Below are positions 3,800 through 23,297 of a DNA stretch of 64,000 bases, piece after piece. Source of the DNA: Patescibacteria group bacterium (GTDB lineage Bacteria; Patescibacteriota; Patescibacteriia; Patescibacteriales; XYC2-FULL-47-12). The stretch covers positions 7,393 through 71,392 of the forward strand of contig JBAZGH010000001.1 in the NCBI GenBank assembly GCA_041652935.1, given 5' to 3'. The notes below the pieces were generated by a model. It did no database searches. It was given only the letters and a program-made list of their open reading frames with translations, and was not told the DNA's origin. The number at the start of each line of letters is the position of its first letter. The stretch's first letter is position 1. The position numbers and the translations under genes were made by a program.

Positions 3800-3817
3800 T
3801 CCATTTAATTAAGAAGT

Positions 3818-4600: not shown

Positions 4601-4616
4601 AATTTATTTATCGTTT

Positions 4617-5747: not shown

Positions 5748-6789
5748 ATTATTAAATGAATTTAAAGGTAAGCGAATTTTAGTGACTGGTGGAACAGGCT
5801 CTATCGGATCAACAATTGTTAAAGAGCTTTTAAAGTACCGACCGCGCCAAATTCGTATTTTTAGTCGTGATGAAACCAAGCAATTTGAATTAATGCATCA
5901 AATTAGTTCCTCAGTCCCAGTTAATTTTTTAATTGGTGATGTGCGGGATAAAGACCGTTTAAGCATGGCGATGGAAAATATTGATATTGTTTTTCACGCG
6001 GCAGCGCTTAAGCACGTAACGGCTTGCGAAAGAAATCCCTTCGAAGCGATGAAAACTAATGTTCAAGGGACGCAGAATATGATTGATTGCGCCTTTGCCA
6101 ATAAGGTTGATAAAGTGATCGTGATTTCCACTGATAAAGCAACCGACCCGGCTAATGTGATGGGGTGCACCAAACTTTTAGCTGAAAAAATGGTTTTAGC
6201 CAGCTTCTTTTATAAAGGGAACAAAAATACTAAAATTTGCTGTGTTCGGTTCGGCAATGTTTTAGGTTCTCGTGGTTCAGTAGTCCCTTTATTTATTAAT
6301 CAAATAAAACGTAATCAGCCAGTTACCATTACTGACCCCAACATGACCAGATTTTTCATGTCTATTGAACAAGCGGTTCAATTGGTATTTAAATCCGCTG
6401 TTATGACAAAAAATTGTGAAATTTTTGTATTAAAAATGCCGGTAATAGCCATTAAAGATCTAGCTAAAGCTGTTATTGAAATTTTTCAAGAAAAAAATAA
6501 AATTAAGTTAAATATCCCCATTAAAATTATTGGAAAAAGGGGAGGTGAACGGATTTACGAAAAGCTTTTAACCGCAGAGGAATCGTTGGGAGCGCTAGAG
6601 ACAGATGAGATGTTTATCGCTCTCCCAAGTTTAATAGATCCAAAACCGGGATATGAATTTTTAAAAGACAATTATTATCCTGGCGCCAAGAAAGCCAAAA
6701 TAGGGGAATACTTATCAAAAGATATTAAAAAAATGCCAATTAAAAAAATTAAGGAATTATTATTATCTAATAAAGATTTAGATTTTTAA
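5737..6789 (+). CDS. UDP-N-acetylglucosamine 4,6-dehydratase (PseB/CapD/LegB-like short-chain dehydratase)
   Basis: 350 aa. The N-terminal ILVTGGTGSIGS is an NAD(P)-binding motif, and the polysaccharide-dehydratase core is present. Confidence 0.8.
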   Translation: MKNKLLNEFKGKRILVTGGTGSIGSTIVKELLKYRPRQIRIFSRDETKQFELMHQISSSVPVNFLIGDVRDKDRLSMAMENIDIVFHAAALKHVTACERNPFEAMKTNVQGTQNMIDCAFANKVDKVIVISTDKATDPANVMGCTKLLAEKMVLASFFYKGNKNTKICCVRFGNVLGSRGSVVPLFINQIKRNQPVTITDPNMTRFFMSIEQAVQLVFKSAVMTKNCEIFVLKMPVIAIKDLAKAVIEIFQEKNKIKLNIPIKIIGKRGGERIYEKLLTAEESLGALETDEMFIALPSLIDPKPGYEFLKDNYYPGAKKAKIGEYLSKDIKKMPIKKIKELLLSNKDLDF

Positions 6790-8599: not shown

Positions 8600-10044
8600 T
8601 TTATATGAAGATATTTGTAATTTGGCCATTTAAAGAATCGGAAATATCCATTTTATTTTCAGAACTAGAAAAAAATGGTCATGAAGTTGTGTATTGGGTG
8701 GGTCTTAAAGAGGGCGAGAAATATAAACCTACCGGAGCTGTTTTTCATGATCATAATGACGCCTGGGTTGGATTGCCGTCCAAAGAAGTGGATGCTTCTT
8801 CTTTTGTGCCGCCGGACGAGGAATTATTAAAAAAGCTTCATAAGACTGAGTCGTATCTTTTAACTATGATGAATAAGCGATATTATTATATGTCAGTAGA
8901 TGAACGTAAACATTTTTATTATAATATGTTGCAGTACTGGAAAGGTGTAATTGACAAATACAAACCTGATTTAATTATTTTTCCAACCATACCCCATACT
9001 GTCTATAATTATTTAATTTATGAATTAGCCATACTGTTTAATATTAAGACAGTCATGTTTGAGGATATCCAGGTAGGAGAAAGAATATTATTATATAATA
9101 TTTGGGAAGAGGGTTGTTTGGATTTGAAAAAAAAATTAATTATGAATAAAGATAAAATATTTTTATTAACAGATTTAAGTAGTGATTTACAAGAATATTT
9201 TAATTTACAGACTAAAGACGGAAGAGGCGATGCCACTCCTCCTTATATGTCGCATTATAAAAAGGTTTATACCGGCGTTAATTTTTTTAGGCATAAATTC
9301 AAGATTATTATTAATGCCATTAAAAATGGATCAATTTTAAAAAGAGTTTTAGATTTTATAGTCAAAATTAAAAAAAATCCACAAAAAGAATACAATAAAT
9401 TACAAATAAAGCCTGACTACAGCAAGAGCTTTGTTTATATTGCTCTTTGTTATCAACCTGAGCGCACTACTAGTCCACAAGGAGGAGTATTTGTGGATCA
9501 AATACTAATGATAGAAACACTATCTGCTGCGTTACCAGAGGGTTGGGTATTATATGTAAAAGAACATCCATCGCAAATGTGGCTTAATGGCTTGAACTAT
9601 TCTAGTTGTCGCTATGAAGGATATTACAAGAGGATTGCGCAGTTAAAAAATACTCATATTATTCCTGTGGAAACTAATTCATTTGAATTAATAAAAAAAT
9701 CTCAAGCAGTAGCGACAGTTACTGGGACAGTTGGCTGGGAAGCGGCTCTTCGGATGAAGCCAGCAATTATTTTCGGTTATGCGTGGTACCATGATTGTCC
9801 GGGAATATTTAGAGTTAATAGCGCCCAGACTTGCCGCCAAGTTTTTTCGGATATAACTAATGGATTTTCTATTAGAAAGCAAGATATTATAAATTACCTT
9901 AAGAGCATAGATAATGTTGCGGTCAATAGCCAAATAGATAGAATTTCAGGTTCGATATTACGGCCATCAAAATTATCGAATTCAGAAATGATGACTAATA
10001 TTACAAAAGCAATTATTAAAAATATAAAAAAAATTATTAATTAA
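8596..10044 (+). CDS. Putative GT-B-type transferase, either TagF/TagB-like CDP-alcohol phosphotransferase or sialyltransferase-like
   Basis: 482 aa. CYQPERT resembles the LYAPTWR motif and VKEHPSQ resembles the K-x-HP motif of TagF-family and GT-B sialyltransferases. The assignment rests on motifs only. Confidence 0.35.
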   Translation: MIYMKIFVIWPFKESEISILFSELEKNGHEVVYWVGLKEGEKYKPTGAVFHDHNDAWVGLPSKEVDASSFVPPDEELLKKLHKTESYLLTMMNKRYYYMSVDERKHFYYNMLQYWKGVIDKYKPDLIIFPTIPHTVYNYLIYELAILFNIKTVMFEDIQVGERILLYNIWEEGCLDLKKKLIMNKDKIFLLTDLSSDLQEYFNLQTKDGRGDATPPYMSHYKKVYTGVNFFRHKFKIIINAIKNGSILKRVLDFIVKIKKNPQKEYNKLQIKPDYSKSFVYIALCYQPERTTSPQGGVFVDQILMIETLSAALPEGWVLYVKEHPSQMWLNGLNYSSCRYEGYYKRIAQLKNTHIIPVETNSFELIKKSQAVATVTGTVGWEAALRMKPAIIFGYAWYHDCPGIFRVNSAQTCRQVFSDITNGFSIRKQDIINYLKSIDNVAVNSQIDRISGSILRPSKLSNSEMMTNITKAIIKNIKKIIN

Positions 10045-10052
10045 AATTTTAT

Positions 10053-11048
10053 ATGTTAGATTTTTTAAAAGATAAAACTATTTTAGTAACCGGAGGAACT
10101 GGCTCTTTTGGCAAAAATTTTGTTAAGTATTTATTAAAAAATTCTGAGGTAAAAAAAATTATTATTTTTAGTCGTGATGAATTAAAACAATCACAAATGC
10201 AGGCGGAATTAAATAGAGATGATATATTGCGTTTTTTTGTTGGTGATGTGCGTGATTTAGGGCGTTTACAAAGAGCGTTCCGTGGCGTGGATATTATCAT
10301 CCATGCCGCCGCGCTTAAACAAGTGCCGACTTTAGAATATAATCCATTTGAAGCTGTTAAAACAAATATTCTTGGAAGTCAAAATGTTATTGATGCCGCC
10401 ATAGATCAAAAAGTGGAAAAAGTAATATTAATATCCACAGATAAGGCGGCCCAGCCAGCTAATTTATATGGATCCACCAAGCATTGCGCGGAAAGGCTAT
10501 TCGTTAGTGGTAATTCTTATGCCAACAGACAAACTAAATTTTCCTGCGTGCGTTATGGCAACGTAATCGGTAGCCGCGGAAGTATTATTGAAACTTTATT
10601 AAAAAAGGCTTCGCAAGAAAAAATATCAATTACCGATGAGCGGATGACTAGATTTTGGATTACGCTTGAGCAGAGTTTTGAATTAGTAATATTTGCCTTA
10701 GCTAATATGGGGGGTGGAGAAATTTTTATTCCCAAAATACCAAGTATGAAATTAGTAGATATTTTTGACTCCATTGCGCCGAATGCGAGAAGAGAAATTA
10801 TTGGTATTCGACCGGGGGAAAAATTACATGAAGTTTTACTGACATTAGAAGAAGCCAGGCATGCGGTCGATTTTGGGGAGGTTTTTATTATTTTACCTGA
10901 ATATAATTTTTTTAATGTTGGCATGTTTGATAAATACTTTAAAACAGGAAAAGAATTAGATTTAAACTTTATTTATGCCAGTGACAATAATAATAATTGG
11001 TTGACTAAGGATGAATTAATAAAAATTATTAATAATCAATCTAAATGA
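10053..11048 (+). CDS. pseB: UDP-GlcNAc 4,6-dehydratase (PseB/FlaA1-type)
   Basis: 331 aa. ILVTGGTGSFGKNFVKYLL is the canonical PseB N-terminus. It is a paralogue of the 5737 gene. Confidence 0.8.
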   Translation: MLDFLKDKTILVTGGTGSFGKNFVKYLLKNSEVKKIIIFSRDELKQSQMQAELNRDDILRFFVGDVRDLGRLQRAFRGVDIIIHAAALKQVPTLEYNPFEAVKTNILGSQNVIDAAIDQKVEKVILISTDKAAQPANLYGSTKHCAERLFVSGNSYANRQTKFSCVRYGNVIGSRGSIIETLLKKASQEKISITDERMTRFWITLEQSFELVIFALANMGGGEIFIPKIPSMKLVDIFDSIAPNARREIIGIRPGEKLHEVLLTLEEARHAVDFGEVFIILPEYNFFNVGMFDKYFKTGKELDLNFIYASDNNNNWLTKDELIKIINNQSK

Positions 11049-12157
11049 TACCCTATGGACGCCAAAATTTAAATAAAGATGATATTGATTTAGTAGTTAA
11101 AGCATTAAAATCAGATTGGCTTACACAAGGCCCGAAAATTTTAGAATTTGAGAAAGCGCTAGCTAAATATTGCGGAGCTAAATACGCAGCAACTGTTTCT
11201 AGCGGGACAGCCGCACTACACCTAGCTTATTTAACAGCTGATTTTAAAAAGGGAGATGAAGTAATAACTACACCAAATACTTTTGTAGCTACATCAAATA
11301 TGCTGTTAGCCGTTCATGTTAAGCCGGTATTTTGTGATATTAGAGAAGATACTTATAATATTGATGAAAGTAAAATAGAAAAATTAATTACTAGTAAGAC
11401 AAAAGCGATTGTTCCAGTTCATTTTGCTGGACATTCTTGCGAGATGAGAAAAATAAAAAAAATTGCTAAAAAATATAATTTAATAATTATCGAGGACGCC
11501 TGTCATGCGTTAGGTGGAAAATATAAAAATATAAAAATTGGTAGTTGCAAATTTTCTGATATGGCGGTTTTTAGTTTTCATGCTGTAAAACCCATTACCA
11601 CGGGAGAGGGCGGAGCAATCTTAACTAATAACAAGAAATATTATGAAAAATTAATTTCTTTGCGCAGCCATGGAATTCATAAAGATAAAAATGGTAAAAA
11701 TATCATGACAGCGTTAGGATATAATTATCGAATTACCGATTTTCAAGCCGCCCTAGGTATAAATCAACTAAAAAAATTAGATTTTTTTATAAAAAAAAGA
11801 AAAGAAGTTGCGGCATGGTACAAAAAAGAATTAAGTGTATTAAAAGAAATTATTTTGCCGCAAGAAAAAAAAGATTGTTATAGCGGTTGGCATATTTATG
11901 TCATTAGAGTAAAAAATAAAAAAAATAAAGATGGCTTAATGAAATATTTAAGACAAAATGGCATAGGGGTTAATTTTCATTATCCGGCGGTTTACACCCA
12001 CCCCTATTACCAAAAAATAGGCTATCAAAATCTGCGTTTAAAATGCGTGGAAGAATATAACAATACCTGCGTCACCTTGCCTTGCCATACTCTATTGTCA
12101 AGAAAAGATATAGGGTACATAGGGGAATTAGTTAAAAATTATTTTAAAATTAAATAA
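11045..12157 (+). CDS. pseC: DegT-family aminotransferase (PseC-type UDP-4-amino-4,6-dideoxy-sugar aminotransferase)
   Basis: 370 aa. It is a paralogue of the 4617 gene and has the same DegT motifs. Confidence 0.8.
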   Translation: MIPYGRQNLNKDDIDLVVKALKSDWLTQGPKILEFEKALAKYCGAKYAATVSSGTAALHLAYLTADFKKGDEVITTPNTFVATSNMLLAVHVKPVFCDIREDTYNIDESKIEKLITSKTKAIVPVHFAGHSCEMRKIKKIAKKYNLIIIEDACHALGGKYKNIKIGSCKFSDMAVFSFHAVKPITTGEGGAILTNNKKYYEKLISLRSHGIHKDKNGKNIMTALGYNYRITDFQAALGINQLKKLDFFIKKRKEVAAWYKKELSVLKEIILPQEKKDCYSGWHIYVIRVKNKKNKDGLMKYLRQNGIGVNFHYPAVYTHPYYQKIGYQNLRLKCVEEYNNTCVTLPCHTLLSRKDIGYIGELVKNYFKIK

Positions 12158-12164
12158 ATTTATT

Positions 12165-13166
12165 ATGGATTATAATATTAAAAAAGAAATAAATCAATTT
12201 ATTTATAAATACCAAAAAGAAGATGTTAATGAGAAGTTGGGAAAAATTTTAGGGGATGATTTTAAAAAATATCGGAATGATTTTAATAAAACTCAGAATT
12301 ACCATGAAACAAAATTTATACCTGATTTTCCCATAACGATTTCATTAGAATTGGTCAATAGATGTAATTTGGATTGCATAATGTGTCTAGAAAATCAACA
12401 TACTCAGCCAAAATCACAACTAAGTTTAGATGATATAAAAAGGATTTTAGATGAAAGCCAGAAAAATAATATGCCATCTATTGAACTAGGACTAGGGTCG
12501 GAGGTGATGATGTATAAAGATATTCAGGAAGTAGTTATGCTTGTTAAAAAAGCTGGTATTTTAGATGTATTTTTTAGCACTAACGGCATATTATTAAATG
12601 ACGAAATAATTCGAGCAATTATTGATAATAAAATTACCCGAATAAAAATATCATTAGACGCCGCTACTGAAGAAACTTATAAAAAAATAAGGCGTAGAGC
12701 CCCCTCATTAAAAATAACTGAAGACAATATTAAAAAAATAATCGCTTGGAAAAAGAAGAAAAATAGTCCGATTCCTGTAATTCGCCTTAGTTTTATAATA
12801 ATGGATATTAATAAGCATGAAATAAAACAGTTTATAGATAAATGGAAAGACGAAGTTGATTATATAGATTTCCAAAAACTCATTGATTTTTCACATGTTG
12901 GTAAAACGGTGTTACTTGATGAAGTTAAACAAGAAGTAATTAAAGATTCTTTTTGCGCCTATCCTTTCTATAGCTTAAATATTTGGGCTAATGGAGATGT
13001 AAGCCCGTGTTGCACTTTTTATGGAAAGGACTTGATTATGGGGAATATTCATCAGCAAACCCTGAAAGAAATATGGAATAGTAAAAAAATGAAATTAATT
13101 CGTGAACAGCTTTATTCTAAAAAATTCAATCCAATTTGTCAAAAATGTTTATATTTTAGAGATTAA
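12165..13166 (+). CDS. Radical SAM protein with a C-terminal SPASM/twitch cysteine cluster
   Basis: 333 aa. CNLDCIMC is a CX3CX2C motif. The C-terminus carries C...CC...CQKC. Confidence 0.7.
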   Translation: MDYNIKKEINQFIYKYQKEDVNEKLGKILGDDFKKYRNDFNKTQNYHETKFIPDFPITISLELVNRCNLDCIMCLENQHTQPKSQLSLDDIKRILDESQKNNMPSIELGLGSEVMMYKDIQEVVMLVKKAGILDVFFSTNGILLNDEIIRAIIDNKITRIKISLDAATEETYKKIRRRAPSLKITEDNIKKIIAWKKKKNSPIPVIRLSFIIMDINKHEIKQFIDKWKDEVDYIDFQKLIDFSHVGKTVLLDEVKQEVIKDSFCAYPFYSLNIWANGDVSPCCTFYGKDLIMGNIHQQTLKEIWNSKKMKLIREQLYSKKFNPICQKCLYFRD

Positions 13167-13218
13167 AATTAATAGATGGTAGTTTTTAAACTAAAAATTT
13201 AATTGTAAAATAAGCACT

Positions 13219-14160
13219 ATGAATATATTAATAGTTGGTTTTGGCTCAATTGGACAAAGGCATTATAAAAATTTATTAATGCTGGGTTTTAAAGATATCT
13301 ATATTTACGACACCGATAGCGCAAAAATTAATAATAAAAATTTCAAAGTAATAAAGAAATTTGATAAAAAAAGTTTAGAAATATTTGACATAGCCTTTAT
13401 CTGTAACCCCAATAATAAGCACATTAATTCAGCGATTAAATGCGCGGAAGCAGGCTGTCATTTATTTATTGAAAAACCTCTTTCGCATACTTTGCAAGAT
13501 ATTGATAAACTACAAAAAATTTGTCAGAGTAAAAAACTAATAACTATGATTGGTTGTAATATGCGTTTTCATCCGTGTTTAAAATTTATCAAAAATTATT
13601 TAAATAAAAATAAATTGGGTAAAATATACAGCGTCCATCATGAATTCGGCCATTATTTGCCATATTGGCGAGTTGGGCAGGATTATCGTAAAAATTATGC
13701 CGTTAAAAAATCTACCGGTGGCGGAATTATTTTAGACGATATACACGAATTTGATTTATTATTTTGGTTTAACGATTTTAAAAAAATAAAAAATTCAAAA
13801 TTTATTTATAATAAATTAAGTAATCTAGAAATTAAAACAGAGGATTTCTGTTTAGCTGTTTTTCAATTTACTAATAAAATTATTGGCTCTGTACAATGTG
13901 ATTATTTACAACAAAATTATACTAGAAATTGTAAAATTATAGGCGTTAAGGGAAATTTAGAGTGGGACTTCAATGAAAATGTTGTTTGGTTAAAAAACAA
14001 ACAAAATGAGAAAAAATTATTTGCGGTTGATAATTTTAATTTTAATAAAGTTTATTTAGAAGAAATAAAATATTTTTTTAGTTGTATTTCTAAGAAAAAA
14101 GAAACTTTTAATGATACAAAAATTGCTTATGGAGTCTTGAAGTATTGTATAAATAGATAA
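13219..14160 (+). CDS. Gfo/Idh/MocA-family NAD(P)-dependent oxidoreductase
   Basis: 313 aa. The N-terminal ILIVGFGSIGQRH is a Rossmann motif, followed by an EKP motif. Confidence 0.7.
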   Translation: MNILIVGFGSIGQRHYKNLLMLGFKDIYIYDTDSAKINNKNFKVIKKFDKKSLEIFDIAFICNPNNKHINSAIKCAEAGCHLFIEKPLSHTLQDIDKLQKICQSKKLITMIGCNMRFHPCLKFIKNYLNKNKLGKIYSVHHEFGHYLPYWRVGQDYRKNYAVKKSTGGGIILDDIHEFDLLFWFNDFKKIKNSKFIYNKLSNLEIKTEDFCLAVFQFTNKIIGSVQCDYLQQNYTRNCKIIGVKGNLEWDFNENVVWLKNKQNEKKLFAVDNFNFNKVYLEEIKYFFSCISKKKETFNDTKIAYGVLKYCINR

Positions 14161-14163
14161 AAT

Positions 14164-14955
14164 ATGAAAAAAAATAAACAAAAAAACCTATGCATAATCC
14201 AAGCCCGTTATGGATCGACTCGTTTACCGGGCAAAGTTTTAAAGAAGGTTGATGGGCTTACTTTACTTGAATATGAAATAATTAGAGTTAAGCAGGCGAA
14301 AAAAATTGATAAAATTGTCATAGCAACCACTAAAAATAAATCCGACAAGAAAATTGAAGAATTATGCCAAAGAATAAAAATAGATTGTTTTTGCGGTTCA
14401 GAAAATGACGTATTAGATCGTTACTATCAATGTTCCTTGGAATACCCCGAATATAAAAATGTTATTCGGATTACTGGAGATTGTCCATTAATTGATCCGG
14501 TGATAATTGATAAAGTCATTAGTTTTTTTACCAAGAGAAAGCTTGATTATACTAGTAATATTGAGTTAGATACTTTTCCTGACGGTATGGATGTAGAAAT
14601 TTTTAAAAAAGACATTTTAATTGAAACTGCTAAAAGAGCTAAATTACCCTCAGAACGAGAACATGTTACTTATTATATCCGAAAAAATAAAAAATATAAA
14701 AAAGGAAATTTAACCGCGTGTAATAACTGGTCTCATTTTCGCTTAACAGTCGATGAACCAATTGATTTTGAGGTTATAAAATTTTTAATTAAAAATAGTA
14801 AAATTACTGATGGATACTTAGATTATATCTCGCTTTTAACTAAGAATCCAAAAGTAATGCTTAGTAATATTAATATTATTAGAAATGAGTGGAAATTAAA
14901 AGCTTTAAAAGAAGACGGAGAATTTAAAAAACAATATGCCAAAAAAATTCACTAA
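14164..14955 (+). CDS. CMP-sugar cytidylyltransferase (SpsF/PseF-like)
   Basis: 263 aa. CIIQARYGSTRLPGKVL is the SpsF/PseF-type motif. Confidence 0.75.
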   Translation: MKKNKQKNLCIIQARYGSTRLPGKVLKKVDGLTLLEYEIIRVKQAKKIDKIVIATTKNKSDKKIEELCQRIKIDCFCGSENDVLDRYYQCSLEYPEYKNVIRITGDCPLIDPVIIDKVISFFTKRKLDYTSNIELDTFPDGMDVEIFKKDILIETAKRAKLPSEREHVTYYIRKNKKYKKGNLTACNNWSHFRLTVDEPIDFEVIKFLIKNSKITDGYLDYISLLTKNPKVMLSNINIIRNEWKLKALKEDGEFKKQYAKKIH

Positions 14956-16225
14956 AAGTCAACAATTATTTAATAAAACTAGCAAAAGTATACCTCTTGC
15001 TTCGCAAACTTTTTCCAAAAGTTATTTGCAATATGTGAGAGGGCAGGCACCTTTATTTATCACACATGGCAGTGGTTCTCACGTTTGGGATGTTGACGGC
15101 AACAAATATGTGGATATGATAAACGGCTTATTGCCAGTAATTTTAGGATATCAATATAAAGCAGTTGATGATGCGATAAAAAATCAGCTAAATAAAGGAA
15201 TAATTTTTTCTCTGCCGTCCCCATTAGAATGTGAATTAGCTAGAATTTTGATTAAGCATATCCCTTGCGCTGAGATGGTCCGTTTTGGCAAAAACGGCTC
15301 CGATGTTACTTCTGGCGCAGTAAGGTTGGCACGGGCAATAACAGGTCGCAGTCATATTGCTTGTTGCGGTTATCATGGTTGGCATGATTGGTATATAGGG
15401 ACTACTGTTAGAAATTTAGGTGTGCCGAAAGAAACACAAAAATTGACCCATAGTTTTAAATATAATGATGTGGATTCTTTAAAAGAAGTTTTTAGAAAAA
15501 ATAAGAATAGAATTGCAGCTGTAATTATGGAACCGATGAACTATGTTGATTTACGGCCTGGATTTTTACAGCAGGTAAAGAAAATAACGCACGACAAAGG
15601 CGCCTTATTGATTTTTGATGAAATTATAACCGGTTTCAGGTATGATTTGGGGGGAGCGCAAAAATTATTCAGAATAACTCCAGATTTAGCAACTTTTGGG
15701 AAGGCAATGGCAAATGGCATGCCAATTGCCGCATTGGTCGGCAAAAAAAAATATATGAAACACGCTGAAGATATCTTTTACTCGTTTACTATGGGGGGCG
15801 AGGCATTATCTTTGGCAGCGGCAATAGCAACTATTAAAGAACTTGAACAGAAAAAAGTTATAAAGTATATTTGGAAACTTGGGAAATATTTGCAGGATAA
15901 TACCAATAATTTTTTGAAAGAAAATAAATTAGATGAGATTATAAAGGTGCGGGGAAAACCTTGTTGGCAGGTATTTATTATCAAGCCATCAGGAAAATTT
16001 AGCGATCTGGAAATAAAAAGCTACTTGCAGCAGGAAATACTACAGGCAGGATTTTTATGGTATGGACAGCATAATATGAGTTTCAGCCATACAAAAAAAG
16101 ATATGGACAGATTATTAGGAGTTTATAAAAAAGTATTTAAAAATTTAAAGGGGTTAATTGATAGTGGAAGATTAAGGGGGGAATTGAGAGGGCAACCGAT
16201 AACTAATATTTTTAAGGTTAGGTAA
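14936..16225 (+). CDS. Class-III PLP aminotransferase (glutamate-1-semialdehyde aminomutase-like)
   Basis: 429 aa. It has the AT-III fold motifs, including FDEIITGFR and a lysine region. Confidence 0.7.
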   Translation: MPKKFTKSQQLFNKTSKSIPLASQTFSKSYLQYVRGQAPLFITHGSGSHVWDVDGNKYVDMINGLLPVILGYQYKAVDDAIKNQLNKGIIFSLPSPLECELARILIKHIPCAEMVRFGKNGSDVTSGAVRLARAITGRSHIACCGYHGWHDWYIGTTVRNLGVPKETQKLTHSFKYNDVDSLKEVFRKNKNRIAAVIMEPMNYVDLRPGFLQQVKKITHDKGALLIFDEIITGFRYDLGGAQKLFRITPDLATFGKAMANGMPIAALVGKKKYMKHAEDIFYSFTMGGEALSLAAAIATIKELEQKKVIKYIWKLGKYLQDNTNNFLKENKLDEIIKVRGKPCWQVFIIKPSGKFSDLEIKSYLQQEILQAGFLWYGQHNMSFSHTKKDMDRLLGVYKKVFKNLKGLIDSGRLRGELRGQPITNIFKVR

Positions 16226-16226
16226 T

Positions 16227-16838
16227 ATGAATTCAACTAAGGTGTTATTTATTTTAGGTGGTGGATTAGTAAAAAAAGATAATAAATGGAGAACTACCAA
16301 TTTCAAGGAAGGAGATAAATTTGGCGCTTCAGGCGATAGGTTAAGGGTGGTGGCTGGAAGCTGTTTATATAAAAATAATTCAGAATATTTAATAATAACA
16401 TCAGGCGGCAAGGGGCAATATAAAAACGTTCCAAATTCTCTAACTGTAGCCGAGGTAATGAGACGAGAATTATTAGAGCTAGGCGTATTAGAGGAGACAA
16501 TAATAAAGGAAGAGGAATCTAGCAATACTTGGGAGCAATTACAACAGTTAAAAAAGATTATTCAAAAAGAAAATTTTATTAAAATAAAAATTCTTTCCAG
16601 TAGATATCATTTACCACGTGTGCGGGCGATGATTGAAGTTGATGGCAGATTAAATGAAATATTTAAAAAAGAAGTATTAGAATTAGTTTCTGCTGAAGAA
16701 ATTTTAATTAAACACAATGAAAATAAGTGGAAGAATTTTATTGAAAAAGCATATTCAAGCGAGGCTATGAAAAAAAGAATTACTTTAGAAAAACAGGGGA
16801 TTAAACAAATTAAAAACGGTACTTATAGTTTAAAATAA
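16227..16838 (+). CDS. DUF218 (YdcF/SanA/ElyC-like) domain protein
   Basis: 203 aa. The stretch ILGGG...ITSGGKG...SRYHLPR is typical of DUF218. Confidence 0.55.
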   Translation: MNSTKVLFILGGGLVKKDNKWRTTNFKEGDKFGASGDRLRVVAGSCLYKNNSEYLIITSGGKGQYKNVPNSLTVAEVMRRELLELGVLEETIIKEEESSNTWEQLQQLKKIIQKENFIKIKILSSRYHLPRVRAMIEVDGRLNEIFKKEVLELVSAEEILIKHNENKWKNFIEKAYSSEAMKKRITLEKQGIKQIKNGTYSLK

Positions 16839-16840
16839 TT

Positions 16841-17905
16841 ATGAAATATATTGAAATTAAAACTCCTAAAGGAAAAAGAAAAATTGGTCCAGGCCAGCCA
16901 GTATTTATAATCGCTGAAATGTCCGGTAATCACAACCAATCTTTTGCGCGCGCCAAGAAAATAATTGATGCCGCGGTTGACGCTGGAGTTGATGCAATAA
17001 AGCTGCAAACTTATACCGCCGATACAATGACGATAGATTGCGATAAAAAATATTTCCAAGTAAAAGTTAATGACGCGTGGAAAGGGCAAAGTTTATATCA
17101 ATTATATAAAAAAGCTTACACGCCATGGAAGTGGCAACCAAAATTAAAAAAATATGCGGAAAGTAAGGGTTTAGTTTGTTTTTCTACTCCTTTTGATGAA
17201 ACTGCAGTTGATTTTTTGGAAAAGATGAACGTACAACTTTATAAAATTGCCTCATTTGAAGTAGTTGATATTCCATTACTTAAAAAAATTGGAAAAACTA
17301 GAAAGCCAGTAATTATGTCACGTGGCATGGCTTCAATTGAAGAAATTAAGCTGGCGGTTAAGACGCTGAAAGATAATGGCGCGCCACATGTCGCAGTTCT
17401 CCATTGTGTAAGTTCATATCCAGCTAAATCGGAACAAATGAACTTAGCTACTATTCCAGATATTACTAAAAAGTTTAAAGTAATATCCGGTTTATCTGAT
17501 CATACCTTAGGAATCGTTGCATCCTTAATTTCCGTAGCTTTAGGCGCCTGCATCATTGAAAAACATTTTACTTTACGTAGGTCTGACGGAGGTCCAGACG
17601 CTAATTTTTCTTTAGAGCCGAATGAATTAAAAGAATTAGTTAAAAATGTGAGAGAATCAGAAAAAGCTATTGGTAAGCCAAATTATGTAATCAAAGGATC
17701 AGATGAGCAAAAAATGAGAAATTATCGAAGATCTCTCTTTGTTGTTAAGGAAATTAAGAAAGGAAATTTAATAACTTATGAAAATGTCAAATCAATTCGT
17801 CCTAGTTATGGACTGCCACCTAAGTATTTAGACAAAGTTATTAAGAAAAGAGCTAGCAAGGATTTAAGTATTGGCACCCCCTTATCTTTTAATTTAATAA
17901 AATAA
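16841..17905 (+). CDS. Pseudaminic/N-acetylneuraminic acid synthase family (NeuB/PseI-like)
   Basis: 354 aa. IIAEMSGNHNQSFARAKKIIDAAVDAGVDAIKLQTY is a NeuB signature. This is the second copy in the locus. Confidence 0.8.
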   Translation: MKYIEIKTPKGKRKIGPGQPVFIIAEMSGNHNQSFARAKKIIDAAVDAGVDAIKLQTYTADTMTIDCDKKYFQVKVNDAWKGQSLYQLYKKAYTPWKWQPKLKKYAESKGLVCFSTPFDETAVDFLEKMNVQLYKIASFEVVDIPLLKKIGKTRKPVIMSRGMASIEEIKLAVKTLKDNGAPHVAVLHCVSSYPAKSEQMNLATIPDITKKFKVISGLSDHTLGIVASLISVALGACIIEKHFTLRRSDGGPDANFSLEPNELKELVKNVRESEKAIGKPNYVIKGSDEQKMRNYRRSLFVVKEIKKGNLITYENVKSIRPSYGLPPKYLDKVIKKRASKDLSIGTPLSFNLIK

Positions 17906-17911
17906 AATTAA

Positions 17912-18700
17912 ATGTCAGAAAAAAAAGTAAAAAAAATTCATAATTTTTGGAATGAACGCGCCAAAGAGCATAAAACAAGTTATTTAGCTACAGTACCAGA
18001 TAAATTCTTAAAAGAATTAGAGATTAAAAATATTTTGAAATATATTCCTAAGAAAAAAATTAAAGTCGTTGATATTGGTTGTGGTAATGGATTTTCTACT
18101 ATTGCTTTTGCCAAAGAAAGACAAGCTGATTTTTTAGGAGTTGATTATTCAGAAAATATGATTGAGCAGGCTCAAAAAATATTACTTCAACGCAAAAAAA
18201 AAATCAAAGGAAAGGTACGATTTATATCGGGTAATATTTTAAATTTAAATTTTTTATCGCCAGCTACTCATGATATTGTATCAACCGATCGTTGTTTAAT
18301 AAATTTAGTCTCTTTATCAGATCAAAAAAAAGCAATTAAGGAAATATCAAGAGTATTAAAAAAGGGCGGTAAGTATATAATGTGCGAAGATACCAAGGAA
18401 GGATTAAGGAAACTTAATGAATTACGTATTTTGGCTGGTCTTGAAGCTATTCCTAATCATTGGCATAATTTATACTTAAATGAAAAAGAATTGCTACCAT
18501 ATATAGAAAGATATTTTAAAATTATTAAAATTGATAATTTTTCCAGCTTATATTATATTGCTTCCCGTATTTTCAATGCCGTATCAGCAATAGATATAAA
18601 AACCCCCAATTATTTAAGCGTTATTAATAAAACAGCTACTAAACTGCCTTCAATTGGAGATTATTCACCTTTAAAAATATTTTATTTAGAGAAAAAATAA
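17912..18700 (+). CDS. Class I SAM-dependent methyltransferase
   Basis: 262 aa. Motif I is VVDIGCGNGFST. Confidence 0.7.
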   Translation: MSEKKVKKIHNFWNERAKEHKTSYLATVPDKFLKELEIKNILKYIPKKKIKVVDIGCGNGFSTIAFAKERQADFLGVDYSENMIEQAQKILLQRKKKIKGKVRFISGNILNLNFLSPATHDIVSTDRCLINLVSLSDQKKAIKEISRVLKKGGKYIMCEDTKEGLRKLNELRILAGLEAIPNHWHNLYLNEKELLPYIERYFKIIKIDNFSSLYYIASRIFNAVSAIDIKTPNYLSVINKTATKLPSIGDYSPLKIFYLEKK

Positions 18701-18703
18701 TAC

Positions 18704-19375
18704 ATGAATTATGTTATTGCCAGTATAAAATCATGGAATGAAGATAATTATAAAATTTTTTTTGATAAGAGTAAAAATTTTTATTTGATAACTAATAAAA
18801 AAGATTTAACATTTGCTAAATTAAAAAAAATAAATCCTAAATATATTTTTATTCCACATTGGTCTTGGATAATACCGGAAAGTATCTGGAGTAATTTTAA
18901 TTGCGTAGTTTTTCATATGACTGATTTGCCATATGGGCGCGGTGGCACTCCCTTGCAAAATTTAATTTTGCGTGGTCATAAAACCACAAAAATATCAGCT
19001 ATTAAAGTTAACAGAGGGATTGACACGGGAAATATTTATTTGAAAGAAAGTTTAAGCTTAAATGGAAGCGCTGAAGAGATTTATCAACGTGCATCAAAGA
19101 TTATTTTTAATAAAATGATTCCTAAAATTATAAAAAATAATCCAATTCCAAAGAAACAATGCGGAAAAATTGTAAAATTTAATCGCAGAAAACCAGGACA
19201 AAGCGAGATTTCCTCAGGCATGAATTTAAAAAAAGTTTATGATCAAATTAGGATGTTGGATGCGGAAGATTACCCCAGAGCATATTTAAAGACTAAAAAA
19301 TTGAAATTTAATTTTTCTAAAGCTCAATTAAAAAATAAAAAATTAATTGCTAATGTTGAAATATATGAAGAATAA
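18704..19375 (+). CDS. Formyltransferase-family protein (sugar N-formyltransferase-like, Fmt N-domain)
   Basis: 223 aa. FHMTDLPYGRGGTPLQNLIL resembles the H-x-S-L-L-P-x-x-R-G catalytic motif of formyl transferases. Confidence 0.6.
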   Translation: MNYVIASIKSWNEDNYKIFFDKSKNFYLITNKKDLTFAKLKKINPKYIFIPHWSWIIPESIWSNFNCVVFHMTDLPYGRGGTPLQNLILRGHKTTKISAIKVNRGIDTGNIYLKESLSLNGSAEEIYQRASKIIFNKMIPKIIKNNPIPKKQCGKIVKFNRRKPGQSEISSGMNLKKVYDQIRMLDAEDYPRAYLKTKKLKFNFSKAQLKNKKLIANVEIYEE

Positions 19376-20042
19376 TATTTTAGTAATAGCTGCCCATCCT
19401 GATGACGAAATATTAGGCATAGGCGGTACAATTTTAAAGCATATTAAAAACGGTGATCAAGTTAGCATCTTAATCCTAGGGGATGGTGAAAGTTCAAGAA
19501 TGAGTGCGACTGCGGTTGATATTGCAAAAAGAAAAGAACAAGTTAAAGAAGTAGCTAAAAAATTAAAAATTAAAAATATTTTTATTGATGAATTACCTGA
19601 TAATAAATTTGATTCAGTAAGTTTGCTAGAAATAATTAAAAAAATAGAAACTATAATAAATAAGATAAAACCAAATATTATTTATACACATCATGCGCAT
19701 GATTTAAACATTGATCATTGTTTGACTTTTCAAGCAGTGTTAACTGTTTGTCGACCTCAGCCAGATTTTTTTGTGAAAAAAATATTAACCTTTGAAACTT
19801 TATCTTCAACCGAATGGCAAATTAAAAATGGACAAAATAATTTTTGTCCAAACGAATATGTTAATATTGAAAAATTTATTAATAAAAAAATTGAAATTTT
19901 AGAGATATACAAAGATGAATTGAGAGATTGCCCTCATCCTCGTTCGATTGAAGGTGTAAAAGTTTTAGCCAAATATAGAGGAATGGAAGTCGGTTATAAA
20001 TACGCTGAAGCTTTTCAAGTAATTAGAAACTTAAATGATTAA
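19347..20042 (+). CDS. PIG-L/LmbE-family N-acetylglucosaminyl deacetylase
   Basis: 231 aa. AAHPDDEILGIGGT is the LmbE zinc-site motif. Confidence 0.75.
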   Translation: MLMLKYMKNNILVIAAHPDDEILGIGGTILKHIKNGDQVSILILGDGESSRMSATAVDIAKRKEQVKEVAKKLKIKNIFIDELPDNKFDSVSLLEIIKKIETIINKIKPNIIYTHHAHDLNIDHCLTFQAVLTVCRPQPDFFVKKILTFETLSSTEWQIKNGQNNFCPNEYVNIEKFINKKIEILEIYKDELRDCPHPRSIEGVKVLAKYRGMEVGYKYAEAFQVIRNLND

Positions 20043-20050
20043 ACAATAAA

Positions 20051-21433
20051 TTACCCCCCGCTCGCATCCCGCCCCAACAACACAGTCCGAATAGTTTTGA
20101 GCATAATAACCAGGTCTAAAAATAAGGACCTGTTTTTTATATAGTATAAATCGTACTGCAGTTTTTTTACCGTGTCCTCTACCGTCGGAGAGTGGTATTC
20201 GCCGCAGACCTGGTCCCAACCGGAAATTCCCGGCTTAACCAGGGTGCGCTCGTTGTAAAAAGGAATTTGTTCTTGCAGTTGGCTTGCCAGATTAGGCCGC
20301 TCCGGACGGGGCCCGATTAAACTCATTTCACCTTTTAAAATATTTATCACTTGCGGTATTTCATCAATTCTAGTATTGCGTAAGAAGTAACCAAACTTAG
20401 TAATGCGGGCATCGTTAGGAACGGTTGGCCGCCCAGTATTTCCCTCCTCGCGCATTGTCCGGAATTTTATTAAGTTAATCGGCCTATTATTTTTTCCGGC
20501 CCGTTCTTGCCTATAAAATATTGTACCGCGGCTTTCTATTTTTATAATGGCTGCGATAATTGGCCAAAACGGCAGGGTGATTAGAAAAATAAAAAGGGCG
20601 ATAATTATATCATAGACCCTTTTTATTTTATCAAACCATGATTTTCCGCCCTCCTGCAGATTTTCTAAAAACCACATTTGGTTAATTGATTCTACTGGAA
20701 TTTTGCCGGTTATTTTTTCATAGAAGTTCGGCAGGCTGGAAAAATTTATTCCCAAGTGCAGGCAGTCAAATAAATTTGATCGGATTTCATTTGAGGTTTG
20801 GGCATCATCAGTCAAAATGACCGAGGAAATTTTATGTTCCAGCAGGTATTTTTTAATATTGGCAATGTCTTTATAATGTTTTACTTCATATAATCCCCGC
20901 TCATAGATATCGCCCTTATATAATACGAAAGATATCCTTAGCCCTAAATGCGGATTATCATTAAAATATTTTATCAATTCTTTTGTTTTTTCGTTATATC
21001 CGATAATCGCTATTTTATTTTTCGGCAAATAAGACTTCAGCGTTTTATTATAAATCTGCCGCCAGATTAAAAATAAAGCCGCGGTAATGACAATATCAAT
21101 CAAAAGATTCCTTTTCGGCGCGATGTTTAAATTAGGCATTAAATAGAAGAAAGCGGAGCCGAGCAGGAAGGAAAAAAACAAAGCCAGCGCGGTATGGGTA
21201 TAAAATTTAGCGTTATTAATCGCGATGGTAAGGTCGTATAAATTGCTGATATAAAAAATCAGCAGCCATAAAATAAAAACGGCTGTAAACGGGCCGATAT
21301 GGTCGGGCCATTGGCGCGGCATGGTTTCGTTCCCATATCTAACCAGCAGAGTTAAATACAATGAAACATATAGTATGCCGATATCGCCCAGCAGAAGAAG
21401 GTATTTTTTAAATTGGAGTGAGTAGTACTTCAT
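20051..21433 (-). CDS. Undecaprenyl-phosphate sugar phosphotransferase (WbaP/PglC-type initiating 'bacterial sugar transferase')
   Basis: 460 aa. The N-terminal half has multiple transmembrane segments. The C-terminal catalytic domain carries the hallmark SLIGPRPERP. GC looks higher than its neighbours. Confidence 0.8.
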   Translation of the reverse strand: MKYYSLQFKKYLLLLGDIGILYVSLYLTLLVRYGNETMPRQWPDHIGPFTAVFILWLLIFYISNLYDLTIAINNAKFYTHTALALFFSFLLGSAFFYLMPNLNIAPKRNLLIDIVITAALFLIWRQIYNKTLKSYLPKNKIAIIGYNEKTKELIKYFNDNPHLGLRISFVLYKGDIYERGLYEVKHYKDIANIKKYLLEHKISSVILTDDAQTSNEIRSNLFDCLHLGINFSSLPNFYEKITGKIPVESINQMWFLENLQEGGKSWFDKIKRVYDIIIALFIFLITLPFWPIIAAIIKIESRGTIFYRQERAGKNNRPINLIKFRTMREEGNTGRPTVPNDARITKFGYFLRNTRIDEIPQVINILKGEMSLIGPRPERPNLASQLQEQIPFYNERTLVKPGISGWDQVCGEYHSPTVEDTVKKLQYDLYYIKNRSLFLDLVIMLKTIRTVLLGRDASGG

Positions 21434-21626: not shown

Positions 21627-23297
21627 ATGACAAAAAAAATGTTAGCAGAGCTGTTTGTCAGAGCTATCGACCCACAATTTGGAGAAGACAACATCTATCG
21701 GAATCCAGCCCAAATAACCATTTCCTTGGGACCGGTAATGATCGCGACTGTTGTCCAGGAGCGCGTAGCAGGTGTAGAAGCTGAAGTTGTGTCGGAAAAC
21801 AATTTCCGGCCATTTCTAAGAAAAGCTCCCTTGGACGGGAGGGGAATGCCCGACCATCTGGCTTTGCAAAAAGAGCGACCGGCAGAATTCATTTTTATCT
21901 CGGCGAGCATCAGCAACGCGGTCCCACGGGCGCTGGAACTCATCGGCATTTACCGCAACATGCCCGAGGAGCTAAGACCGAAATGGATTGTGGTCGGCGG
22001 CTGGCATGCCGGAGACAGCCCCAAGGAATTTCTGCTTGCCGGGGCCGATATCGTCGTCCATGGCGAAGGCGAGCCCGTCGTTAAGTCAATTATTGACGCG
22101 CTAAAAGGCGATTTGCCGCTGGAAAAAGTGCCTGGGATTTCCTATTGGTCGGCGGACGGGCAGATAAAAAGGAATCCGGTTTTTGACAAGCGCTATGAAG
22201 GGGAAGAGGGGTTTATTATCGTTCCGCCCGAAGAGATGGACCTTTTGCCTTACCCGAATTTCGGACTGGTGCGCTGGGCAAAAATAGAGATAATACCCAT
22301 AAGCAGAACAAGGGGTTGCGGCGGGAAGTGCCGTTTCTGCCGAGTTAAGGGAGAAGCGAGAGTTATTTCCCCAAAACGCCTTGCGGAACAGATAGAATCT
22401 CTGTGCAGCCAGGGGTATAGGCGATTTTTCCTAGTCGACGATCGCTCGGAAGAGGATATGGAAGGATTCATCGCTTGGTTGCAAGAAATAGTGAAATTGC
22501 GAAGGGAGAGGAAAATCCGGTGGATCTACATTACGGTCCAAAGCCGGTTATCCGCCGCCAATGACGAAGAACTGCTGCGGCTGATGCACGAGGCGGGAAT
22601 ACAGACAGTGGCAATCGGGGTTGAATCGGTTATTCCTGAAGAGTTGAGGGCCATGAAGAAGCCTATGAGCCAAGACCTTAATGAAATCGTCAGATTGATC
22701 AAGGTTTGGAAAAAACATGGCTTTTTCACGCATGCGATGCTCATCTTCGGCTATCCAATGCCATCCAAATCCAATCCGTTCCGCATGGATATTAAAGAGC
22801 GCGTCGCCAGATTCTGGTATTTTATCAAGGAGGCAAATCCGGACACGTTGCAGGTTTTAGCCTTAACGCCGATTCTGGGTACAGAGGACTGGCGAGATCT
22901 TGAAAGTCAAAACAGGATCTTCAGGGACTTGGGATGGCAGAATTGGGACGGCCTGCATGTGGTTTTCAGGCCGGATGAGCCCTTAACCGCCCCGCAGGTG
23001 CAGAGGGCTATTATTTATCTGCAGGACAGGTTTTATTCTTTTCTGTGGCTTAACATTCACGGAATTGCTTCTGTGGCGTTGAGAGCTTGCTATATCGGAT
23101 TGCTTGCGTTGGCTATGCCCTTTGTCTGGGCGCTTCTAATGCCTTTTAAGGGATTGGTTCCTAAATTAGCTTTTCGGCCCTGGCACAGGGTATGGCGCAA
23201 CACTATTCGCCGTCTTGGAGCCCAACTGATAGTTTTACGGGTTAAGGAAAAGCTTATTCCCTTCCTGCAAAAACTTGAAGAGCGTGAAGAACGTTAA
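21627..23297 (+). CDS. B12-binding-domain radical SAM protein with a C-terminal hydrophobic membrane anchor
   Basis: 556 aa. There is an N-terminal Rossmann-like B12-binding region. CGGKCRFC is a CX3CX2C motif. The C-terminal about 60 aa are hydrophobic. The gene is markedly GC-rich. Confidence 0.65.
   Translation: MTKKMLAELFVRAIDPQFGEDNIYRNPAQITISLGPVMIATVVQERVAGVEAEVVSENNFRPFLRKAPLDGRGMPDHLALQKERPAEFIFISASISNAVPRALELIGIYRNMPEELRPKWIVVGGWHAGDSPKEFLLAGADIVVHGEGEPVVKSIIDALKGDLPLEKVPGISYWSADGQIKRNPVFDKRYEGEEGFIIVPPEEMDLLPYPNFGLVRWAKIEIIPISRTRGCGGKCRFCRVKGEARVISPKRLAEQIESLCSQGYRRFFLVDDRSEEDMEGFIAWLQEIVKLRRERKIRWIYITVQSRLSAANDEELLRLMHEAGIQTVAIGVESVIPEELRAMKKPMSQDLNEIVRLIKVWKKHGFFTHAMLIFGYPMPSKSNPFRMDIKERVARFWYFIKEANPDTLQVLALTPILGTEDWRDLESQNRIFRDLGWQNWDGLHVVFRPDEPLTAPQVQRAIIYLQDRFYSFLWLNIHGIASVALRACYIGLLALAMPFVWALLMPFKGLVPKLAFRPWHRVWRNTIRRLGAQLIVLRVKEKLIPFLQKLEEREER

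Follow-up and report, generated by a model that had tools for sequence, protein, structure and literature searches.

A pseudaminic-type nonulosonate operon with recurrent accessory enzyme families in a Patescibacteria genome

Gene content of the operon

Here we analyse a set of predicted sugar-tailoring genes from the metagenome-assembled genome of a Patescibacteria group bacterium, lying within a 64,000-nucleotide stretch of contig JBAZGH010000001.1 that we refer to as the window. By our open reading frame (ORF) calls, the interval of interest, positions 12165 to 20042, is the distal part of module B, an 11-gene operon on the + strand (10053 to 20042) that is tightly packed and devoted to a sialic-acid-like, pseudaminic-type surface sugar, that is, to a nonulosonic acid (NulO). 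Its genes, in order, are as follows:

10053 to 11048, + strand: PseB, UDP-GlcNAc inverting 4,6-dehydratase, first gene of the operon (TIGR03589, 449 bits against a cut-off of 407.75)
11045 to 12157, + strand: PseC, aminotransferase giving UDP-4-amino-4,6-dideoxy-beta-L-AltNAc (TIGR03588, 460 bits against a cut-off of 423.5)
12165 to 13166, + strand: radical S-adenosylmethionine (SAM) enzyme with a twitch-like (partial SPASM) C-terminal domain (PF04055, 71 bits; PF13186, SPASM, 62 bits)
13219 to 14160, + strand: Gfo/Idh/MocA NAD(P)-dependent sugar oxidoreductase (PF01408, PF22725, PF02894)
14164 to 14955, + strand: CTP_transf_3 cytidylyltransferase (PF02348, 102 bits; best PDB match 6oew)
14936 to 16225, + strand: class-III pyridoxal phosphate (PLP) enzyme, an aminotransferase-family protein resembling glutamate-1-semialdehyde aminomutase (PF00202, Aminotran_3, 167 bits)
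16227 to 16838, + strand: DUF218/YdcF-family protein (PF02698, 66 bits)
16841 to 17905, + strand: PseI, pseudaminic acid synthase, for condensation with phosphoenolpyruvate (PEP) (TIGR03586, 482 bits against a cut-off of 340)
17912 to 18700, + strand: class-I SAM methyltransferase (Methyltransf_31/25/11)
18704 to 19375, + strand: formyltransferase-like protein (FT) of the PDB 1zgh family (Formyl_trans_C_2, PF21553, 74.5 bits; weak Formyl_trans_N, PF00551, 29 bits)
19347 to 20042, + strand: PIG-L/LmbE metal-dependent de-N-acetylase (PF02585, 98.5 bits against a gathering threshold of 28.2)

The genes are contiguous or overlap (PseB and PseC by 4 nt, the cytidylyltransferase and class-III genes by 20 nt, the FT and PIG-L genes by 29 nt), no intergenic gap exceeds 52 nt, and every ORF of at least 80 aa is an enzyme gene with a family match. 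Because of this packing, and because the same families are found together again in more than 150 independent loci, their grouping is beyond chance. The original prediction, made from the letters and their ORFs, had read the interval as the tailoring set of a heavily decorated nonulosonate. Pfam and NCBIfam scans recovered every ORF and domain that it named, where it had placed them and on the + strand, and the PseB, PseC and PseI scores all exceed their family cut-offs. The interval is the tailoring part of a pseudaminic-type NulO pathway. Its gene list was incomplete, passing over the cytidylyltransferase (14164 to 14955) and PseI (16841 to 17905), and the operon begins upstream of the interval, at PseB (10053). 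Its count of two methyltransferases does not stand: the one at 17912 to 18700 is the only one between 12165 and 20042, and the other (3818 to 4600) belongs to module A, a second nonulosonate module of the window.

With somewhat more confidence than doubt, we read 12165 to 20042 as the tailoring two-thirds of an operon making a cytidine monophosphate (CMP)-activated 5,7-diamino-3,5,7,9-tetradeoxy-nonulosonate of the pseudaminic type, modified by a series of predicted tailoring steps. The decorated sugar is probably an N-formylated or de-N-acetylated one of this type. At the level of enzyme family, PseB and PseC would convert UDP-GlcNAc to UDP-4-amino-4,6-dideoxy-L-AltNAc, PseI would condense the released hexose with PEP, and the CTP_transf_3 protein, presumed to be the CMP-NulO synthetase of module B, would make the CMP-sugar, destined for a lipid-linked surface glycan of the Patescibacteria cell.

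Set beside the canonical pathway to CMP-activated di-N-acetyl pseudaminic acid (CMP-Pse5Ac7Ac) of Campylobacter jejuni and Helicobacter pylori, which runs through PseB, PseC, PseH, PseG, PseI and PseF, module B shares orthologues of PseB, PseC and PseI, a cytidylyltransferase of the same superfamily and the organisation as an operon. It differs in its cytidylyltransferase, which does not appear to be of the PseF type (27 bits on TIGR03584 against a cut-off of 206), in seven extra genes (radical SAM, Gfo/Idh/MocA, class-III PLP, DUF218, methyltransferase, FT and PIG-L), and in the absence of PseH and PseG from all 64 kb. No PseH was detected in any frame of the window by a hidden Markov model (HMM) built from 30 related-locus sequences (best E 0.47), and Pfam reported no GNAT domain in the operon; the lack of a GNAT-type PseH in module B, already remarked in the original prediction, thus extends to the whole window. 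PseG is likewise absent from every frame of the window (HMM from 46 related-locus sequences, best E 0.41). Among the related loci, which we cite by L or P numbers, four from marine metagenomes (L131, L135, L140, L150) carry a PseC with a fused N-terminal RmlD-like reductase domain (695 aa) and, between PseB and the radical SAM gene, a fusion of GNAT and aldo/keto-reductase domains (435 aa).

The formyltransferase-like protein and its PIG-L partner

Along its entire length FT shares about 65% identity with PDB 1zgh (290 bits), which we take to be a Clostridium thermocellum structural-genomics entry. Its family is large, with 4,967 database clusters at E < 1e-8, and widespread, with members in at least 574 species genomes and 50-65% identity across Patescibacteria, Clostridia, Omnitrophota, Campylobacterota, Bacteroidota and archaea. 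The protein has the marks of the formyltransferase fold, namely an HxSLLPxxRG folate loop and a small C-terminal subdomain, and the alignment of the family profile to VioF, ArnA and GDP-perosamine formyltransferase spans about 180 residues. In the case of VioF, an N-formyltransferase of 4-amino-4,6-dideoxy sugars, it takes in most of the window protein. H71 and D107 are invariant in the family and align, together with the fold motif, to these sugar enzymes and to Fmt N-domains; the folate-loop motif is also kept (HMTDLPYGRGGTP here, HxxxLPxGRGGxP in the family). FT is thus presumed, from its sequence relatives, to be a sugar N-formyltransferase, and formyl transfer by it is plausible. The original prediction had considered that it might instead align as a methionyl-tRNA formyltransferase. 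That identity is ruled out: FT scores 33 bits against a cut-off of 201.5 on the Fmt model TIGR00460, and in place of the tRNA-binding domain its C-terminal part is the 58-residue PF21553 domain, with no Fmt-type C-terminal model reported by Pfam. A search with the family alignment recovered 80 genome loci, and these are pseudaminic acid (Pse) biosynthesis loci, which indicates that the name under which 1zgh was deposited, 'methionyl-tRNA formyltransferase', ill fits the family.

One feature speaks against formyl transfer, and with it against part of the pathway that we favour. The Asn of the catalytic triad (Asn-His-Asp) of sugar N-formyltransferases such as PseJ, VioF, ArnA and WlaRD is V69 in the window protein and V, I or T in all 14 aligned family members, a replacement on which four independent PDB alignments agree (Fmt from two species, VioF and ArnA); the family also has an invariant motif of its own, PHWSW, which is new. 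It is conceivable that FT is no formyltransferase at all, serving as a folate-binding or hydrolase-like partner of PIG-L or in some other acyl transfer, in which case the product would carry no N-formyl group; the poor fit of the 1zgh name, together with the lack of any paper on the function of 1zgh in the library that we searched, agrees with this. We consider it unlikely, since His71, Asp107 and the folate-loop motif are invariant, since all detectable relatives of FT are N10-formyl-tetrahydrofolate (N10-formyl-THF) enzymes, and since formylated NulOs have been found together with a deacetylase/formyltransferase cluster in the Kuenenia case described below, whose enzymes are likened to ours by description only.

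PIG-L retains an intact AHPDDE metal-binding and catalytic motif, with VIAAHPDDEILG present, and scores under the cut-offs of the bacillithiol and mycothiol equivalogs. Its association with FT is striking. We called ORFs in the 80 genome loci and compared them by phmmer with the window proteins and with C. tetani PseG, PseH, PseF, Maf and flagellin. The PIG-L gene lies immediately 3' of the FT gene in 70 of 78 genome loci, and in the 37 loci whose flanks both reach 9 kb or more it is adjacent to FT in every case, alongside NeuB/PseI (36), a cytidylyltransferase (33), PseC (31), PseB (30), PseG (24) and a GNAT-type PseH (21). PIG-L is thereby the obligate partner of the FT gene. The flagellar locus of C. 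tetani illustrates the setting, with the order flagellin, Maf, PseB, PseF, PseH, PseI, FT, PIG-L, PseG. Since the pair sits in Pse loci that usually also hold PseH and PseG, we regard it as an accessory module and not as a general stand-in for PseH. By sequence, the pair is a conserved N-deacetylation and re-acylation module of Pse loci in many phyla, with formylation the probable re-acylation. The gene order of the window, PseI, methyltransferase, FT, PIG-L, is repeated in L019, where the methyltransferase matches at 290 bits.

The pathway that we propose would run accordingly. PIG-L would strip an N-acetyl group; the simplest choice is the one carried over from GlcNAc, whose nitrogen becomes N5. 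FT would then re-acylate an amine, probably with a formyl group from N10-formyl-THF. N-formyl derivatives, free-amine derivatives or both would result, which the neighbouring methyltransferase may methylate.

The original prediction had gone further and put the formyltransferase in the place of PseH, as in 7-N-formyl pseudaminic acid. Read strictly after PseJ (PDB 6ci2, 6ci4), the enzyme that completes the route to Pse5Ac7Fo (as cited in PMC11040635), FT would formylate the C4 amine of the UDP-sugar to give 7-N-formyl Pse, while PIG-L would strip the 5-N-acetyl group and leave a free or methylated amine. There is something to be said for this: the window has no PseH, and no other protein of the operon than FT is a candidate acyltransferase; PseJ is a precedent for a formyltransferase in the role of PseH; and in the closest syntenic relative (L090) a GNAT gene directly follows the radical SAM gene, at the very spot where the window has none. 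The reach of the VioF alignment and the Kuenenia products, with one formyl group and one free amine from a cluster for which no acetyltransferase is named, point the same way. What the window and the PseJ route share is a formyltransferase-fold enzyme in a Pse locus without PseH and a predicted N-formyl Pse. They differ in that the window enzyme belongs to the 1zgh/PF21553 family, lacks the triad Asn, is paired with PIG-L and in most genomes occurs with PseH. An orthologous relation to PseJ is ruled out, with the family profile matching 6ci2/6ci4 only at E 7e-4 to 1e-3 and about 22 bits. Equally, a general substitution of PseH by FT is ruled out, as most loci have PseH beside FT and as FT can be fused to GNAT (P0126, P0141). 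A protein found beside a GNAT-type PseH in at least 21 of 37 loci, and fused to GNAT in others, would there perform another step. The part of the claim that stands is thus the PseJ precedent and the missing PseH, and we hold the strict reading to be doubtful.

Experimental precedent for the deacetylation and re-acylation logic of our preferred pathway comes, by analogy, from Ca. Kuenenia stuttgartiensis, as described in a 2026 SugarBase preprint (10.64898/2026.04.20.719630). One amine of its CMP-NulOs is free and one is formylated, with a methylation of +14 Da; in the cluster, genes for a deacetylase and a formyltransferase are flanked by dehydratase/aminotransferase genes on one side and by NeuB/cytidylyltransferase genes on the other. 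This pattern matches the methyltransferase, FT and PIG-L trio of the window, and differs in that the Kuenenia core is of the legionaminic (Leg) type and the window core of the Pse type. Our literature search found no functional study of LmbE, Met-tRNA formyltransferase, glutamate-1-semialdehyde or radical SAM accessory genes in a pseudaminic, legionaminic or nonulosonic context, and neither a 2026 survey of Clostridium nor a Geobacillus paper discusses the FT and PIG-L pair.

Three further observations concern the same genes. On a Rhodospirillales chromosome (L005, 7739-9411), a Formyl_trans_N and Polysacc_deac_1 pair lies beside a radical SAM homologue in a flagellin/Maf locus; as this pair uses Polysacc_deac_1, the combination of deacetylase and formyltransferase recurs with non-homologous deacetylases. 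A second, divergent FT-like paralogue (about 215 aa, Formyl_trans_N 31 bits) is found in L013 (8308-8958) and in L020, L021, L025, L034, L068 and L075, where it is encoded between PseF and PseI, the usual place of PseH, with the 1zgh-type FT and PIG-L present in the same loci. Here again the triad Asn is missing (motif NLVIHESDLP), and there is no match to PseJ. Finally, a WbqC-like protein (PF08889), absent from the window, is encoded directly upstream of FT-PIG-L or of a lone PIG-L in several Patescibacteria loci, namely L009 (5157-5849), L012 (1735-2433) and L168 (11843-12553).

The radical SAM protein

The radical SAM protein carries the CX3CX2C motif of its superfamily with all three Cys (C67, C71, C74) invariant. 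The only further Cys conserved in its family are C264, C282/C283, C325 and C328 (C-x17-CC...C-x2-C). The family thus does not show the seven-Cys SPASM motif for two auxiliary clusters; judged from sequence, the conserved Cys would suffice for a single auxiliary cluster, and they are spaced much as in BtrN. BtrN also supplies the PDB domain that the family profile matches best, its twitch domain (profile hit over positions 253-331). With BtrN/BtrS of the butirosin pathway, a twitch radical SAM dehydrogenase followed by a PLP aminotransferase, the operon shares this one-cluster Cys set at the same spacing, a PLP aminotransferase gene and, as a prediction, a hydroxyl to ketone to amine logic. The likeness to BtrN covers the C-terminal domain only, Foldseek identity is 13-15%, and the window protein has a 55-residue N-terminal extension; the two systems differ as well in substrate, an aminocyclitol there and a predicted nucleotide sugar or NulO here, and in the aminotransferase, with BtrS of the DegT type and the window enzyme of class III. 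The radical SAM protein, with its one predicted BtrN-like auxiliary cluster, would abstract a hydrogen from the sugar, and the outcome would be dehydrogenation or epimerisation. C-methylation, which the original prediction had listed among the possible reactions, is unlikely given the BtrN-like twitch pattern of Cys and the lack of a B12 domain.

Its genomic context is consistent. In three unrelated genomes, homologues (43-55% identity) have NeuB, cytidylyltransferase, Maf and flagellin genes as neighbours, and metagenomes yielded 506 relatives. Among 80 metagenome loci taken from these, NulO genes, or Maf plus flagellin, were present in 22 of the 24 with flanks of at least 3 kb and in all 12 with flanks of at least 9 kb. 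The gene adjoins PseB or PseC in many loci, and its recurrent neighbours include HisH-like and Asn-synthase-like amidotransferases and the class-III enzyme. The family is dedicated to NulO and flagellin-glycosylation loci; in the library that we searched, no paper ties a radical SAM enzyme to NulO biosynthesis. A replacement of PseG by the radical SAM protein is ruled out, with both genes present in L003, L109, L111, L152 and L166. Rhodospirillales members of the family sit in flagellin glycosylation loci (L005, P0055, P0065, P0084); these may or may not be connected with the 'higher-carbon' CMP-ulosonic acids that Magnetospirillum gryphiswaldense makes.

Could the radical SAM protein be a peptide or cofactor maturase that merely happens to lie in a sugar locus, next to a housekeeping, HemL-like class-III enzyme? 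Its top Foldseek matches are maturases of ribosomally synthesised and post-translationally modified peptides (SkfB and SuiB), the best of its 47 NCBIfam matches is a tungsten-cofactor maturase, and the nearest PDB sequences of the class-III protein are glutamate-1-semialdehyde aminomutases. The radical SAM protein, however, fits none of the curated maturase families (PqqE, MftC, AlbA, SkfB, the tungsten-cofactor maturase and others): all 47 of those matches fall far under their cut-offs, the best with 115 bits against 380, and the class-III protein reaches only 263 bits against 527 on the HemL equivalog TIGR00713 (and 396 against 486 on PRK06209). The original prediction, which had left room for a known cofactor-maturase family unrelated to sugars, is borne out here both by these scores and by relatives that lie in NulO loci. 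The 12 well-flanked homologue loci, from different phyla, are all NulO or flagellin-glycosylation loci, fusions of the class-III enzyme with a cytidylyltransferase recur, and the short gaps and enzyme-only ORFs of the operon leave no room for a precursor-peptide gene. We therefore regard this explanation as very improbable.

The oxidoreductase, cytidylyltransferase and class-III enzyme

The nearest NCBIfam model of the Gfo/Idh/MocA protein is that of an archaeal UDP-GlcNAc 3-dehydrogenase (94 bits, under its cut-off), and it would oxidise a hydroxyl to a ketone or act as a ketoreductase. Its gene recurs with those of the cytidylyltransferase and the class-III aminotransferase in L009, L033, L043, L060 and L066. 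The CTP_transf_3 subfamily is the only cytidylyltransferase match in Pse loci L015 and L054, and in L043 and L060 a PseF-type cytidylyltransferase stands in the same position beside the aminotransferase.

Aminoglycoside C-6' aminotransferases and epimerases are among the PDB neighbours of the class-III enzyme. The enzyme is coupled to the cytidylyltransferase: the two are fused in L003 (712 aa) and in L137, L158 and L160 (678 aa), and their genes are side by side in more than 10 Pse loci, often together with a Gfo/Idh/MocA gene. Pairs of a dehydrogenase and an aminotransferase have precedents in WbpB/WbpE, KdnB/KdnA and BtrN/BtrS. By analogy with these, hydroxyl oxidation followed by transamination may take place at or near the CMP-sugar stage: Gfo/Idh/MocA, the radical SAM protein or both would oxidise a sugar hydroxyl, and the class-III PLP enzyme would aminate or isomerise the oxidised position.

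A partial parallel exists in the Legionella pneumophila Sg6/Sg12 O-antigen loci, which encode a GNAT protein, PseG, a 'GSA aminomutase', an acylneuraminate cytidylyltransferase and HisF/HisH (PMC3694923). These share with module B a class-III PLP enzyme beside a cytidylyltransferase in a NulO locus, and HisH-like genes, which are also common near the radical SAM family; unlike module B, they have PseG and GNAT and lack radical SAM, FT, PIG-L and DUF218 genes.

The DUF218 protein and the missing PseG step

PseH and PseG act in consecutive steps. The DUF218 subfamily of the window, found only in loci of the candidate phyla radiation (CPR; Patescibacteria), has ties to the first of these steps and to the synthase: its gene is a neighbour of NeuB/PseI in L168, L169 and the window, a GNAT domain is fused to it in L029 and L032, where the fusion is the gene after FT-PIG-L, and in L071 and P0292 its fusion partner is a Formyl_trans_N domain. 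We compared its occurrence with that of PseG in the 73 loci that span 12 kb or more and encode a synthase of the PseI type. DUF218 and PseG were never found together (0 loci), DUF218 alone occurred in 10, PseG alone in 39 and neither in 24 (Fisher p = 2e-4). Being fused to the N-acyltransferase step and mutually exclusive with PseG, DUF218 is, on this sequence evidence, a candidate functional substitute for PseG and non-orthologous to it, and it would do the missing enzyme's job of freeing the hexose from UDP. No biochemical activity is known for any DUF218 protein. Its weak Foldseek and PDB-profile matches (YdcF 3ca8, methylglyoxal synthase and, with probability 0.4-0.7, halves of GT-B enzymes) were not used as evidence.

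From these strands we put forward, tentatively, a broader proposal: that in CPR and some other lineages a DUF218 protein acts as the hydrolase of the PseG step, and that a twitch radical SAM enzyme, with Gfo/Idh/MocA and class-III PLP partners, performs radical chemistry on a nonulosonate.

Several points weigh against the pathway set out above, in addition to the missing triad Asn. Lineage confounds the mutual exclusion of DUF218 and PseG, nearly all DUF218-positive loci being CPR, and 24 of the 73 loci have neither gene. Foldseek gave only weak matches for DUF218, none with E below 1e-3. For the radical SAM protein, whose AF2 (AlphaFold2) model has a pLDDT (predicted local distance difference test) score of 90, Foldseek places the model equally near SkfB, SuiB, MoaA, BtrN, EpeE, BlsE, DesII and anSME, and besides the core NulO genes the family has no constant partner. 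In a window without PseH, the sequence does not fix the acyl state of the C4-derived amine (N7) or the regiochemistry of FT and PIG-L.

PseG and PseH could, moreover, lie outside the window, which takes in 64 kb of an 85-kb contig. The pathway would then be an ordinary one to standard Pse5Ac7Ac, with the accessory enzymes adding minor late decorations, much as clostridial loci combine the full canonical set with FT and PIG-L, and as L111 has the radical SAM and class-III enzymes alongside a complete PseB/C/H/G/I set. PseG is, however, undetectable within about 10 kb in 15 of 17 CPR Pse loci, as against its presence in 39 of the 63 DUF218-negative loci, and DUF218 is fused to a PseH-like step in L029 and L032. 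The ordinary pathway seems to us improbable. In a sixteenth CPR locus, L088, the sole PseG signal was marginal (E = 0.001) and fell on its Capsule_synth gene.

The wider glycan island

Module B is the last of three blocks that the Pfam and NCBIfam scans delimit in a low-GC region, after module A (493 to 6789) and a set of export and transfer genes. The GC content is 27-33% from position 1 to about 20,050 and 35-46% over the rest of the window, and every large ORF of the low-GC part lies on the + strand in dense packing. The step is sharp and coincides exactly with the convergent end of the operon, genomic GC resuming at the gene at 20051 to 21433; this suggests a glycan island that is horizontally exchanged or hypervariable in the CPR genome. 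Three genes flank module B:

6806 to 8599, + strand: MsbA/PglK-type ABC exporter, between the two NulO modules (PF00664 and PF00005)
8596 to 10044, + strand: Capsule_synth (KpsS/KpsC-like) protein (PF05159, 40 bits)
20051 to 21433, - strand: polyprenyl-phosphate glycosyl-1-phosphate transferase, convergent with the operon end (PF02397, 206 bits; TIGR03025, 369 bits against a cut-off of 296)

An orthologue of the exporter lies upstream of PseB in L007, L090 and L169. KpsS1 is, we presume, a member of the Capsule_synth family. The Capsule_synth gene recurs in related loci (L007, L019, L032, L060, L168, L169), and its product is probably a transferase that uses the CMP-sugar; KpsS1 is a Pse-specific glycosyltransferase, as cited in PMC11040635.

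Module A comprises a Neu/Leg-type NeuB, an AP_endonuc_2 protein, a NeuD/PglD acetyltransferase, a PseF-like cytidylyltransferase, the methyltransferase mentioned above, a DegT aminotransferase and a PseB/FnlA-like dehydratase. For none of the seven was there a match to a hydrolysing 2-epimerase family of the NeuC/LegG type. The AP_endonuc_2 protein, a xylose-isomerase-like TIM barrel (1503 to 2480), is encoded between NeuB and NeuD, and a similar gene closes L007. At the head of the island is an HTH_17/excisionase-like ORF of 82 aa (228 to 476), which may be a regulator of the locus; an 83-aa HTH_17 gene occupies the same spot, ahead of the ABC exporter, in L007 and L169.

Just past the edge of the low-GC island, a neighbour of the phosphoglycosyl transferase gene encodes a 556-aa B12-binding radical SAM protein (21627 to 23297), a candidate C- or P-methylase; housekeeping genes follow. 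Related NulO loci contain B12-radical SAM genes within them (L007, L116, L120, L133, L138, L139, L151); the window protein and the L007 copy are only 24% identical.

Significance

Nonulosonic acids decorate flagella, pili, capsules, S-layers and LPS (lipopolysaccharide), and govern immune and phage recognition; to our knowledge, most of the enzymes that diversify them have yet to be identified. The locus described here brings together four uncharacterised families dedicated to these sugars, namely the 1zgh-type FT with its PIG-L partner, the twitch radical SAM enzyme, the cytidylyltransferase-coupled class-III PLP enzyme and DUF218, and offers a testable role for each, including a first biochemical hypothesis for DUF218. 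It also shows streamlined CPR bacteria investing about 20 kb in two nonulosonate modules. If the proposal for DUF218 is true, it would give a first biochemical activity to a large family that includes SanA and ElyC; if that for the radical chemistry is true, it would mean a NulO type not yet described, with an extra amino group, an epimeric centre or a changed backbone. None of this overturns the known logic of the pathway. The extra enzyme families recur in such sugar loci across bacteria and archaea, and they are leads for new sugar chemistry and not a new kind of system.

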